NCBI GenBank assembly: GCA_963665095.1
Contig: OY762069.1
Coordinates: forward strand, 480,001-544,000
Length of the DNA: 64,000 nt
Reading direction: 5' to 3'
DNA from: an uncultured Desulfobacter sp.
GTDB lineage: Bacteria; Desulfobacterota; Desulfobacteria; Desulfobacterales; Desulfobacteraceae
In this document: piece after piece, positions 44,832 through 48,515 of the stretch
Position numbering within the stretch: position 1 is the stretch's first letter
Layout of the letters: the number at the start of each line of letters is the position of its first letter
Position numbers and translations under genes: made by a program
Notes under the pieces: generated by a model
Databases searched by the model: none
The model's input: the letters and a program-made list of their open reading frames with translations, nothing else
Told to the model about the DNA's origin: nothing

Positions 44832-44948
44832 ACCGGTGGTAATGGCGAAGAGGCCACACCCGTACCCATCTCGAACACGGAAGTTAAGCTCTTTAGCGTC
44901 GATGGTACTGCATGGGAGACTATGTGGGAGAGTAGAACGCCGCCGGTT
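44832..44948 (+). rRNA. rrf: 5S rRNA
   Basis: CCCATCTCGAACACGGAAGTTAAG...GATGGTACTG...GGGAGAGTAG; closing stem ACCGGTG/CGCCGGT. Confidence 0.97.
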
Positions 44949-45306
44949 CTTCTTCAAAAGGCTCTGATTATCAATAAGATAGTCAGGGCCTTTTACTTTT
45001 TGGTGCCCATCTCGAACCCGGAAGACCCGATTATATGTTTTGGTCTTTAGCGTCGATGGTACTGTCATAGGAGTGTATTGTTTGGGAGAGTAGAACGCCG
45101 CCGGTTCTTCTTCAAAAGGCTCTGATTATCAATATGATAGTCAGGGCCTTTTACTTTTTGGTGCCCATCTCGAACCCGGAAGACCCGATTATATGTTTTG
45201 GTCTTTAGCGTCGATGGTACTGCACTAAGATTGTACTGTTTGGGAGAAAAGAAGCCTGTTGGTCCTTTCAAAAAAGCCCATATCATCATAAGATGGTCTG
45301 GTTTTT
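44925..45306 (+). repeat. Tandem repeats of a truncated 5S sequence plus terminator, period 158 bp
   Basis: 44925-45064 and 45083-45222 are identical at 139/140 nt; degenerate third copy from 45241. Confidence 0.9.
44956..45001 (+). terminator. rrn terminator (second copy at 45114-45159)
   Basis: AAAAGGCTCTGATTATC...GATAGTCAGGGCCTTTT followed by a T tract. Confidence 0.85.
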
Positions 45307-45823: not shown

Positions 45824-46054
45824 TTATCTCTTGCGATAGCTTTTCCCCTCCAGTATCAGGATCTTGGAGTTGTAAACAAGTCGGTTGGCAATTGCTGTGG
45901 CAACGGTTGTCCCATCAGAAATCGTTCCCCATTTTGCAAACGGCGGGTTTGTCGTGATGATGGTTGATTTCTTTTCATGCCCGGCGCTAATTGCCTGGAA
46001 ACATAAATTTGATCCCTGTTTGCCCAGCGGAAGATAACCGATCTCGTCACACAC
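45824..46054 (-). pseudogene. istB: IS21-family IstB ATPase C-terminal remnant
   Basis: DEIGYLP...STIITTN...AIANRL...LEGKSYR; 5' part missing. Confidence 0.85.
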
Positions 46055-46294: not shown

Positions 46295-46444
46295 TGCGAC
46301 ACCCTGAAGTGGACCCCATGTCAAGACCGATTTTAACGTTTTTTAAGCTACATTTTCTCTGTTTCTAATTTCGAATCAGCCTGTTAAAGACCCTCTTTTC
46401 CGGCATATTTTTCTTGATATTTAATACCGCTATGTTATCCTCCC

Positions 46445-46561
46445 GCCGCCAACCCGGAGGATAGGGCAATGCTGGGAAGCAACCTGAGCGCCGTGGCTGG
46501 CGACGAAGACATGGGGGCAGTATACGTTTAATGTATGCTGTCCTTCCCCCATGTTTTTGTC
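46445..46561 (+). ncRNA. Candidate structured small RNA inside the IS3 right-end region
   Basis: Promoter TTGATA-N16-(TGn)TATCCT at 46414-46441; nested stem with GGGA tetraloop; long hairpin with T tract. Confidence 0.55.
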
Positions 46562-46637
46562 CTTAATGCGTTAAATCCTCGCGCCTTAGCGCGAAATCAA
46601 TACCCCGTAGGGCCGCCGGAGGCATCAGGCCTTTCCT

Positions 46638-47476
46638 TTAAGCCGCTCGATAGACCGAAAACGGCACCTTATACCCCAGGGCTGAATGAAGTCTCTCCCG
46701 ATTATAAAACCCGATAAACGCTTTTAACGATTGCTGAGCCTCTCTTACCGTTCTGTAGTCCTTCAAATAGACTTCTTCGTATTTAATCGTTCTCCACAGC
46801 CGTTCCACAAAAACGTTGTCCAAGGCTCTGCCCTTTGAATCCATGCTGATTTTGATGTTTTTAGCCTGGAGTATCTTCAAAAATTTTAATGAAGTGAACT
46901 GACTACCCTGGTCAGTGTTGAAAATCTCAGGTGTCGATACAATCAATGCCTCCTCAAGGGCCTCAATACAAAATGTATTCTCAAGGGTGTTACTGAGGCG
47001 CCATGAAAGGACATATCTGCTAAACCAATCCATAACCGCCGATAAGTACATAAATCCGTTTCCAATTCTAATGTATGTGATATCTGTACTCCATACCTGA
47101 TCTGGCCTGTCAATTACGGCATTTTTCAGCAAATAGGGGTAAACTTTATGGCTTTCATCCCTCCTTGTTGTTTTAGGTCCTGGGTAAATCGCTTCTATTC
47201 TCATCAGCTTCATCAGGCGCTGTACTCGTTTCCTGCTTACCGGATACCCCATATTGTTCAGCCAGGCTGTAAGCCTACGGCTTCCATAAAAGGGGGTTTT
47301 GGTATGCTGCTCATCAAGCAGATCCATAAGGGTTAATGTATACGGGCTTATGGCTACCGGCCTGTAATACAACGCCCCTTTTGAAACCTGAAGCAGTTCA
47401 CACTGCCGGTTAATGCTGATGGAAGGATGTTGTTTATCTATCAACCCCCTTCTGTCAGAGATTGATTGTATTAACC
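46638..47476 (-). CDS. IS3 transposase OrfB (DDE domain)
   Basis: FYGSRRL, WSTDITYI, FNTDQGSQF, DNVFVERLWRTIKYE; frame open back to the A9 run. Confidence 0.92.
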
Positions 47477-47739
47477 TTTTTTTTTAACCAGTCATTCTCA
47501 ACTTCGAGCTGACCGATTTTCTTATATAATTCGTCTATTAGATTCTGAGTATCATTTGGGCTTTTCTTTTTCGCTGATGAAAACAACGTCGGAAGACCCT
47601 CTATCGCTTCTTTCTTCCATCTGTTTAACATAGTTCGATGAACCTGGTATTTGGATGACAACTCCGCAAGAGTTTCATTTTCTCGAATCACATCAACTAC
47701 AACTTTAGCTTTGAACTTTCCGGTATAATTTTTTCTCAT
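47455..47739 (-). CDS. IS3 transposase OrfA (HTH)
   Basis: RKNYTGKFKAKVV...ELYKKIGQLEVENDWLKKK; GGAGG RBS. Confidence 0.92.
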   Translation of the reverse strand: MRKNYTGKFKAKVVVDVIRENETLAELSSKYQVHRTMLNRWKKEAIEGLPTLFSSAKKKSPNDTQNLIDELYKKIGQLEVENDWLKKKVNTINL

Positions 47740-47828
47740 GGACCTCCTTTTTCGGTACAAATTTGAACCGGGTTTTTATCACCTCATATGTACCTTAGCA
47801 ACTGGTTCAAATTTCGGGGTCCATTATA

Positions 47829-48178
47829 CCCTTCGGTTCCACAACATAGGCTGAACTGAATAAAGAACTCCTCCGGCACATCCTCAGGCTCTCCCCGGGG
47901 CTTGCGCATGCAATTGCTGAAATATAAGGGGCCTCCACAATGGGGACAGGGCAACTGTCTGTAATGTTTTGCTGTATTTTTGTCGATTTCGTAAAGATGG
48001 ATAAAAAGATTTTTATTTTTAATAAGTCCTGATTGCATACCTCCTGCCCTGTTGGGTTAATAGGGGGGCAGAAGTTCCATTGATTATTTGCTAGATAAAC
48101 GGGGGAGCTTCTGCCTCATCCCTGGCATATCTTGCAAATTATTTTTAATTTTTCCATGATTTTTTGTGATCATTCTCA
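47829..48178 (-). mobile_element. Left end and interrupted first ORF (CPHCGG Zn-finger type) of a TG-ended transposable element
   Basis: ORF from 48038 reads ...CPHCGGPL...RKPRG...FSLCCGTEG and resumes as CRKR at 46301 beyond the IS3; terminal TGAGAATG at 48178. Confidence 0.6.
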
Positions 48179-48515
48179 CTTATCCGGTTTTTTAAACGGA
48201 GGATCAGAGGAAGGCGGTTTGCTGGAATTTTGAGAATTTTTGTTGAGCTTGTTTTCAAGCTCTGTGACCCGTTTTTTAAGGTTCTCTGTTTCCATAAGCA
48301 ATTTCATAACCACCTCTTCCAACTGGATAATATACCGTTGGACCGGCTCCGGGGTAGCTTGAAATTCTTCATCTGAAAAGGGTCTTTTAATCTCCATGAA
48401 ATTGAAGATAGCATAATAAAAAGCAAAAATCTAGATTTTTTATTAATTCAATATGTTGTATTTAATACGTAATTTCAAAATGTTAAGCAGGGCAAGTACC
48501 CCTGTGAATAGATAC
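48176..48515 (-). pseudogene. IS66-family transposase N-terminal remnant (DUF6444-like) with left end
   Basis: LENKLNKNSQNSSKPPSSDPP; GTATCTATTCAC end at 48515; truncated at 48178. Confidence 0.78.

Follow-up and report, generated by a model that had tools for sequence, protein, structure and literature searches.

The feature analysed here lies in an IS3-family element of 1,524 bp that occupies positions 46305-47828 of the window (the whole stretch of 64,000 nucleotides of DNA that was analysed) and whose genes are read on the minus strand. The downstream gene, orfB (46638-47444), encodes a DDE transposase matched by PF00665, PF13276 and, above its cut-off, NF033516, while orfA (47455-47760) matches PF01527 just under the curated cut-off. 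An A9G run visible in the sequence at 47476-47485 on the minus strand precedes the orfA/orfB junction and is, as we assume from IS3 biology, a likely -1 frameshift site. The right terminal repeat region begins with TG on the plus strand (46305-46345) and the left one with TA on the minus strand (47788-47828), the inner boundary of each being approximate. An earlier note on this DNA had placed the element inside a CCC target duplication, and both copies were located, at 46302-46304 on the left and 47829-47831 on the right. The element carries the orfA/orfB pair with a DDE domain, the terminal repeats and the 3-4 bp duplication of the IS3 family. The same note had counted 333 nt between the orfB stop and the right repeat; the number is right but runs from the outer end of the repeat, so the repeat is included. 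Further near-identical IS3 copies, some full length and some interrupted, occur in the window's genome (G000), and a script found 3-bp target duplications at four of the five full copies with both ends located. No joint of an IS3 circle was found in that genome or in the contigs of four of six sequencing runs, contigs being prone to drop rare forms.

The surroundings of the element consist of mobile-element debris adjoining an rRNA operon. Two tandem 158-bp repeats, 96% alike, lie 3' of the 5S rRNA gene (44925-45240) and contain degenerate 5S-like sequence and a hairpin. An IstB (IS21) remnant is found at 45824-46054 and a DUF6444 fragment at 48176-48397, and a fragment at 47784-48038, resembling the gene of a 13-copy element of the same genome, was apparently clipped by the IS3 element.

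Between orfB and the right repeat, on the plus strand and convergent with the transposase genes, the extended sigma-70 promoter proposed earlier at 46414-46441 is present as described: a -35 box TTGATA (46414-46419) is separated by 16 nt from TATCCT, which forms with its TG an extended -10 box TGnTATCCT (46433-46441). Taken alone such a match is at chance level (3 sites versus 4.8 expected), and it is its conservation among homologues that makes it significant. TANNNT occurs 21 nt ahead of the core in 64 of 135 unique cores, where 2.5 are expected, and at -25 to -18 in 177 of 238 dereplicated loci. When these are aligned on TANNNT, TTG falls at spacers of 16, 17 and 18 in 26, 38 and 11 cases (75/177), each other spacer accounting for 2-6, and the extended TG is common. 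Of the 91 homologues that have the -10 offset seen in the window, the main class, 96% carry a purine at the predicted +1. The -35/-10 spacing and the purine start point to a double-stranded sigma-70 promoter, of which an RNA beginning at G46448, the base of stem P1, is the likely product. Its conserved part would measure about 131 nt (46448-46578, plus strand), start and 3' limit both being predicted; the covariance model R1 gives it 113.5 bits, by construction. A small-peptide gene or type I toxin mRNA translated after GGAGG was considered and rejected, there being no conserved start codon or open reading frame: the codon is ATG in 62 of 263 cases, ACG in 110 and CTG in 60, and frame lengths range from 8 to at least 100.

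The predicted RNA comprises two domains and a tail, all on the plus strand. Domain 1 (46448-46501) is made of stem P1, an invariant internal loop (46458-46463 / 46486-46490) and stems P2 and P2b, capped by the apical loop GGGA (46474-46477), whose last three bases form the 5' strand of a pseudoknot. Domain 2 (46502-46561) abuts P1 and consists of one long hairpin, P3, whose sequence and length both vary. It is followed by a conserved tail, AAWGCGNUAAA, predicted to be unpaired (46565-46575), and by UCC (46576-46578), the 3' strand of the pseudoknot. The fold given in the earlier note is reproduced, from the outer stem and AGGAT/GAGCG loop to the inner hairpin and the hairpin of 60 nt: the interval 46442-46570 reaches -59.6 kcal/mol on the plus strand (z -4.4, equalled by 0/200 shuffles) against -52.3 kcal/mol (z -3.0) on the minus strand. 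Several details had to be revised. The minimum-energy fold of the 60-nt hairpin contains four G-U pairs rather than three. The supposed terminator T tract forms the 3' arm of the long hairpin, where it is base-paired, and CTTAATGCG comes after it; no terminator was called, and conserved sequence continues for some 17 nt past the hairpin to 46578, beyond the approximately 115 nt first suggested. Of 135 unique cores, only 69 have a GNRA-like loop where the tetraloop was proposed. Since this loop covaries with the 3' tail, the tetraloop and terminator readings are both wrong.

Comparative evidence for the fold is extensive. When folded singly, homologues (median length 133 nt) prefer the plus strand in 96 of 102 cases, with a median z of -3.3. 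Four inner-stem pairs, left free by the search pattern, are paired in 133, 135, 134 and 131 of the 135 unique cores, with exchanges among U-A, C-G, G-C and A-U, and one P2 pair is G-C in 77, G-U in 32, A-U in 21 and A-C in 5 of them, a distribution that favours the plus strand. In an alignment of 82 of 96 candidates, near-duplicates being excluded, 82% of cells pair versus 64% when shuffled and 35-46% when slid, the slid control leaning in favour of a structure that was derived from the same sequences; double changes are found at 23 of its 28 pairs. P3 begins where P1 ends, is 39-147 nt long across homologues, and its loops are not enriched for GNRA or UUCG (10 of 38 tetraloops).

The tail, GCGNNAAA, is found in 174 of 210 homologues and in 6 of 221 upstream controls. 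The three bases 3' of its AAA pair with the last three of the apical loop, the combinations including GGGA-UCC, GGAG-CUC, GGGG-CCC, GAGG-CCU and GGCG-CGC. These pairs are Watson-Crick in 144, 147 and 142 of 156 loci, those lacking the conserved tail being left out of the counts (79, 80 and 79 of 82 in another count), and rank third, fourth and seventh in an unbiased mutual-information scan. An independent set of 41 loci found by the model has a readable tail in 37, and all three pairs form in 33 of these; it also displays exchanges at the top of P1 (G-C/C-G/A-U) and in P2 (G-C/U-A), and its internal loops show A-G/G-A swaps. A variant near a tyrosine integrase on a phage-like contig (L226/L227, about 6000) combines a longer loop with a matching longer tail complement. 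A second pseudoknot, between the GCG of the tail and a CGC of the core, was rejected because the core bases exchange together with their partners on the 5' strand (G-C/C-G/A-U), and the GCG of the tail stays constant. We consider it very probable, judging by these sequence comparisons, that the motif represents a real class of structured RNA. The earlier proposals of an IS-borne, promoter-driven structured RNA and of a cassette common to IS tails are in this respect strongly supported by covariation, by promoter conservation and by the IS21 and IS110 copies described below.

Downstream of the pseudoknot the window carries optional hairpins at 46579-46623 on the plus strand (46579-46594; C-GTA-G, 46604-46612; C-GGA-G, 46615-46623) that are common to IS21 tails at 88-91% identity. 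Among homologues GGGG runs are enriched 3' of the pseudoknot on the non-template strand (263 versus 84 expected), and triloop hairpins closed by C-G are biased toward this strand: cNNAg outnumbers cTNNg by 44 to 6 (controls 4:2 and 4:5), and cGNAg is found 14 times versus 3 on the other strand (controls 1:2 and 1:1). A G-run hairpin follows the tail in 71 of 176 loci and is missing from the other 105; no conserved 3' end or switch site between primer and DNA was found among the homologues. Mini-hairpins with GNA loops are described as stable in DNA and present at priming sites (PMC13037366).

The motif is widespread. Among 101 related genomes, 35 match the IS3 tail, with 46447-46578 conserved and the flanks not; 11 of 30 loci with the core lacked an IS3 transposase and had IS21, IS110 or IS481-like genes instead or were cut short, which confirms the idea in the earlier note that tails of other IS elements contain this core. 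An exact core pattern with a free gap of 14-21 nt retrieved 121 stretches in 3 of the 64 GTDB parts, which corresponds to about 3,000 in all; 117 of 122 core matches share a single length of 36 nt, and metagenomes contain about 14,000 core matches. Carriers span about ten bacterial phyla, the record titles naming Acidobacteriota, Planctomycetota, Desulfobacterota, Chloroflexota, Bacillota, Verrucomicrobiota, Myxococcota, Armatimonadota and Cloacimonadota; one or two titles of metagenome-assembled genomes (MAGs) point to Bacteroidota and Actinomycetota, but these MAGs may be misbinned. Cultured bacteria are among the carriers: Singulisphaera acidiphila DSM 18658, Desulfosediminicola flagellatus IMCC35005 and Sporotomaculum syntrophicum FB. 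A covariance model built from 82 sequences was applied to 21-32 candidates per genome, so that its counts are lower bounds. It detected the motif in the phyla of four MAGs: at least 13 of 151 genomes for a Rhizomicrobium MAG, at least 22 of 151 for a Lachnospiraceae MAG, at least 5 of 101 for a Blastocatellia MAG and at least 1 of 121 (the seed itself) for a Marinilabilia MAG. Scans of viral contigs with a loose pattern gave mostly chance matches, the true ones lying in IS copies or beside integrase/excisionase genes; no small single-stranded DNA phage carrier was found among them, and a phage collection yielded two short matches at chance level only. No terminal repeats were present in 161 loci checked for circularity. 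The motif is not confined to near-identical IS copies, and its multi-phylum homologues covary.

No family of Rfam 15 matches the motif, whether in the window at E ≤ 5, in 20 loci at the gathering score or in 20 loci at E ≤ 10, where only sub-threshold noise appeared; the search covered 41 sources in all. Full-text literature searches, at the level of listings and abstract openings, yielded no description of the motif, although it may be listed unnamed in the supplements of motif surveys (PMC5737381 and PMC11109978, the latter with 250 mobile/repeat candidates); sequence words of the motif matched unrelated primers only, and one small supplement file of PMC8632094 contains no match. The predicted RNA stands outside every family tested and may, by analogy, work like a transcription-primed origin. 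Weinberg et al. associate a profile of multi-phylum distribution, pseudoknot and many invariant bases with sophisticated biochemistry (PMC5737381), and the motif could on that ground be a ribozyme of a new class, whether it cleaves itself or catalyses another reaction. This seems very improbable here: the fold begins at the predicted +1 with nothing upstream to remove, no Rfam ribozyme matches, and a tandem or rolling-transcript arrangement is present at a single locus (L163).

The genomic company of the motif was surveyed in 152 loci (72 from GTDB and 80 from metagenomes), unbiased samples with flanks from which duplicates and matches other than 36 nt had been removed. A mobile-element gene lies within 700 nt in 120 of them, and 115 of these neighbours belong to IS3, IS110, IS21, IS1202, IS256, ISL3, IS481-like, IS30, ISLre2-like, tyrosine-recombinase, three-gene integrase/ATPase(/AAA_25 helicase) or rolling-circle Rep types. 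IS3 accounts for 38 (37 after transfer of L130, IS21 by Pfam), IS110 for 23, IS21 for 9 (10 with L130), IS1202-type for 8, three-gene elements with AAA_25 for 7, IS256 and ISL3 for 6 each, tyrosine recombinases for 5, IS481-like for 4, IS30 and ExeA-type for 3 each, rolling-circle Rep and IS1380 for 2 each, and ISLre2-like, IS1182, IS630 and DUF1670 for 1 each. The IS1182 and both IS1380 cases look like neighbours or nested insertions, and IS630 is the sole mobile neighbour at its locus (L265). The remaining 32 loci have no mobile gene, 16 of them with flanks of at least 700 nt on both sides. Comparison of copies places the cassette inside IS21 (G004, G011) and IS110 (G008, G009), and repeat pairs enclose it in IS1202, IS481-like, IS30, IS256 and other IS3 elements, these automatic calls being reliable only at high score or where a duplication was found. 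Circle-forming types predominate among the hosts: eight of the nine families listed as such by Chandler et al. (10.1101/2023.06.07.543989) are present. The seven AAA_25 loci (L174, L235, L250, L256, L270, L300, L302) have elements ending in the helicase gene directly upstream of the RNA, with an integrase and an ExeA-type AAA ATPase further upstream where the contig is long enough.

The cassette adopts all four orientations relative to the mobile-element genes: convergent (48), co-directional downstream (44), divergent (10) and co-directional upstream (8), the other 10 overlapping. Within one IS3 lineage sharing the same end sequence, the window element and L016 are convergent while L102, L114 and L296 are co-directional, so that no fixed strand rule is apparent; comparison of donor ends, made for models of strand choice, found TA at either or both element ends. 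These layouts bear on a role as antisense RNA and terminator regulating the IS3 transposase, for which the convergence with orfB in the window and at 48 of 120 loci would speak. That role is the least probable of all those considered, given that the conserved part does not overlap orfB, that no terminator follows, that 62 of 120 loci have other non-overlapping layouts and that a transposase-free plasmid carries the cassette. More generally, a transposase-specific function fits poorly with four orientations, chemically unrelated recombinases and that plasmid. A nascent RNA of the put type, binding RNA polymerase and altering pausing or termination so as to aid transcription across element ends or circle junctions, would account for two abutting hairpins right at the predicted start and for the many copies directed outward near an end; we consider it very unlikely, as read-through from the 48 convergent copies would yield antisense to the transposase.

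Several observations indicate that the cassette moves between elements. IS21 tails are 88-91% identical to the window IS3 tail whereas IS3 relatives reach 73-75%, which implies a recent tail swap, and a module with an open reading frame of about 55 codons is common to IS21, IS3 and IS481-like tails (L005, L019, L020, L024, L025), a second sign of such swapping. In the window's genome all 11 model matches are the IS3 element or its remnants; the cassette is absent there from IS4 (14 copies), IS21 (16), IS66, IS91, IS1634 and IS1380 and from two IS481-like/three-gene elements (14 and 13 copies). As these elements lack it, the cassette is dispensable; the baseline for family bias is this one genome, and related loci are not independent. 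Recent swaps between IS3 and IS21 tails and dispensability would suit a passenger or selfish module recombining among IS tails without benefit to them. Against this stand compensatory changes across phyla and a decay restricted to transposase-less IS3 remnants of Singulisphaera acidiphila (L370-L374), where invariant core bases are mutated; together they imply selection and, as no mobility enzyme or ends of its own were found, leave the passenger reading only a slim chance.

The main rival to the reading that we prefer below is a trans-acting RNA, a decoy binding a conserved host protein such as a defence, silencing, repair or RNA-decay factor, which would help any element forming circular or single-stranded DNA. 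Free position and orientation and an own promoter agree with it, a single carrier could serve the many non-carriers of a genome, and the invariant internal loop, with its UA/GA stack and A-G/G-A swaps, resembles protein-binding motifs of the loop-E type, of which we take the stack to be a signature. Such a decoy nonetheless seems doubtful: it has no linked partner gene and no conserved terminator that would release a discrete RNA, and it leaves the strand-biased, DNA-type hairpins downstream unexplained.

The cassette is also found on rolling-circle replicons. The circular 2,376-bp plasmid HG796808.1, which encodes Rep_1 and no transposase, has a complete unit, with promoter, tail and pseudoknot, on its rep strand, and a CTTGATA site, presumably the nick site, follows about 100 nt downstream; this plasmid was the only true match when four variants were compared by blastn with the 72,556 records of PLSDB. 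Two metagenome contigs have the 5' domain ahead of Rep_1 or Rep_2. The RNA has the same sense as rep in all three contexts (p = 0.125), two of them partial; with this sense, priming of the displaced strand would be beyond it. At the Rep_2-type locus (L262, about 1012-1250) the core is upstream of rep, and a tail that matches its GGCG loop lies with a P3-like arm on the opposite strand about 135 nt upstream, an arrangement that could reflect an inversion, a split RNA or a misassembly.

A different reading of these data is that the motif folds as single-stranded DNA and serves as a single-strand origin, or as a primosome or primase site, for second-strand synthesis. The rep strand in 3/3 contexts is what such origins require (PMC5703833), the downstream GNA triloops and P3 loops devoid of GNRA/UUCG enrichment would fit DNA, and the phiX174 F-G intergenic DNA (L234, 164-178) contains GAAGCGGTAAAAA, which resembles the conserved tail, a likeness noticed post hoc. 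R1 finds no match to this phiX174 stretch, and no printed confirmation was found for the supposed consensus words of the primosome assembly site (PAS). The 16-18 spacing and purine start imply a double-stranded promoter; a hairpin promoter on single-stranded DNA was rejected, promoter and downstream DNA being no more complementary than shuffled sequence (better in just 76 of 149). With a 3-bp pseudoknot that appears RNA-like and two of the three Rep cases partial, we regard the single-stranded DNA reading as unlikely.

The reading that we prefer is that the predicted RNA of about 130 nt is a cis-acting pre-primer for host copying of a circular intermediate, to which, reasoning by analogy, we assign a probability of roughly 0.35. 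RNA polymerase would start at G46448. With P3 as a spacer hairpin, domain 1 and the tail would then fold up into a compact pseudoknot, which would either bind a host factor or keep hold of the transcript. RNA past the pseudoknot would re-anneal to its template as an R-loop, aided by G-rich runs and by DNA-type triloop hairpins on the displaced strand, and a host polymerase would extend the RNA 3' end. Such priming, comparable to that of ColE1 RNA II or pAMbeta1, would complete the passage from figure-eight to circle or amplify circles already excised. The circle-forming hosts, the G runs and the strand-biased triloop hairpins are what lead us to favour a pre-primer, and the complete copy on a transposase-free Rep_1 plasmid and the seven loci with an AAA_25 helicase support priming. 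Because the host elements share no recombinase chemistry, the step common to them would be a host-dependent one; what they have in common is a circular intermediate left to host enzymes to complete or maintain. With neither chemistry nor layout shared, a cognate guide, a leader and an antisense RNA with a fixed target are all excluded. Conversion of the figure-eight into a circle by host replication (PMC7780238) and transcription-primed origins (PMC5935869, PMC5703833) are both documented. Arguing against priming are the dispensability of the cassette, its two orientations in one IS3 lineage, the G-run hairpin missing in 105/176 loci, the wrong sense for the displaced strand of rolling-circle plasmids, the harm that ten chromosomal origin copies could cause, the 16 long-flanked loci without a mobile gene nearby and L265 with only IS630. 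Somewhat more tentative is the broader proposal of a swappable cassette of about 190 bp acting as a Rep-free, RNA-primed mini-origin of unrelated copy-out and excise-and-reinsert elements; if true, it would supply the missing replication step from figure-eight to circle and amplify circles as transient mini-plasmids.

Comparison with known systems helps to situate the motif. ColE1 RNA II and pAMbeta1 likewise combine an own promoter (here a consensus), a structured transcript, G-rich DNA downstream and host-only enzymes, the last being proposed in our case (PMC5935869, PMC5703833). They are longer (about 520-550 nt versus about 130), whereas our motif lies inside IS elements, is a putative primer, has no counterpart of antisense RNA I and shows no sequence or Rfam match to them. 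ARRPOF and GEBRO, also structured motifs of unknown mechanism in plasmid replication regions, the former in a region replicating without rep, are longer (223-349 nt) and lineage-restricted (Weinberg et al. 2017, PMC5737381), whereas our motif is mainly IS-borne and has no Rfam match to either. The mobile/repeat candidates of Narunsky et al. (2024) are similarly multi-copy, transposase-linked and orientation-free, and the one compared here, MRSC-65-2, is a single stem with UYCCGG repeats, unlike the present motif (PMC11109978).

The single-strand origins and primase sites (ssoA/U/W, phiX174 PAS, G4-type) are similarly hairpin-rich and non-coding and lie on the rep strand of rolling-circle replicons, as the cassette does in the three contexts above, two of them partial, but differ from the cassette with its conserved double-stranded promoter, RNA-type pseudoknot and both orientations in IS elements. 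Structured RNAs in the non-coding end of an IS are known, the bridge or seek RNAs of IS110/IS1111 and the omega RNAs of IS200/IS605, and our motif resembles them in this location and in its presence inside IS110. Unlike bridge and seek RNAs, it has no variable guide loops, its internal loop is nearly invariant, 97 of 120 neighbours are not IS110, and it lies on the strand opposite to the recombinase in G008 and G009; being common to DDE, tyrosine and HUH enzymes, it is not a cognate guide.

To our knowledge IS3, IS21, IS256, IS30, ISL3 and IS1202 are regarded as a transposase with ends and no RNA. Here a single pseudoknotted RNA would be maintained by selection in no fewer than eight of these families and also in IS110, tyrosine-recombinase elements and a plasmid, although it takes up about 190 bp of a 1.3-1.6 kb element; it apparently constitutes a widespread, undescribed RNA class of circle-forming mobile elements. 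In the commonest pathway of bacterial transposition, the step least well resolved is the replication that turns the figure-eight into a circle, and a defined cis cassette whose base pairs can be compensated opens it to direct tests. Should the RNA be a decoy or a ribozyme instead, it would still be a new multi-phylum class and would point to a host factor limiting circular mobile DNA.

The cassette may itself be an insertion hot spot, as ends or breakpoints of other elements fall within or at its edge at L364, L017, L024, L028, L117 and L236. In one IS110 tail (L163, 2501-2850) it is duplicated in tandem, the two copies lying 314 nt apart.
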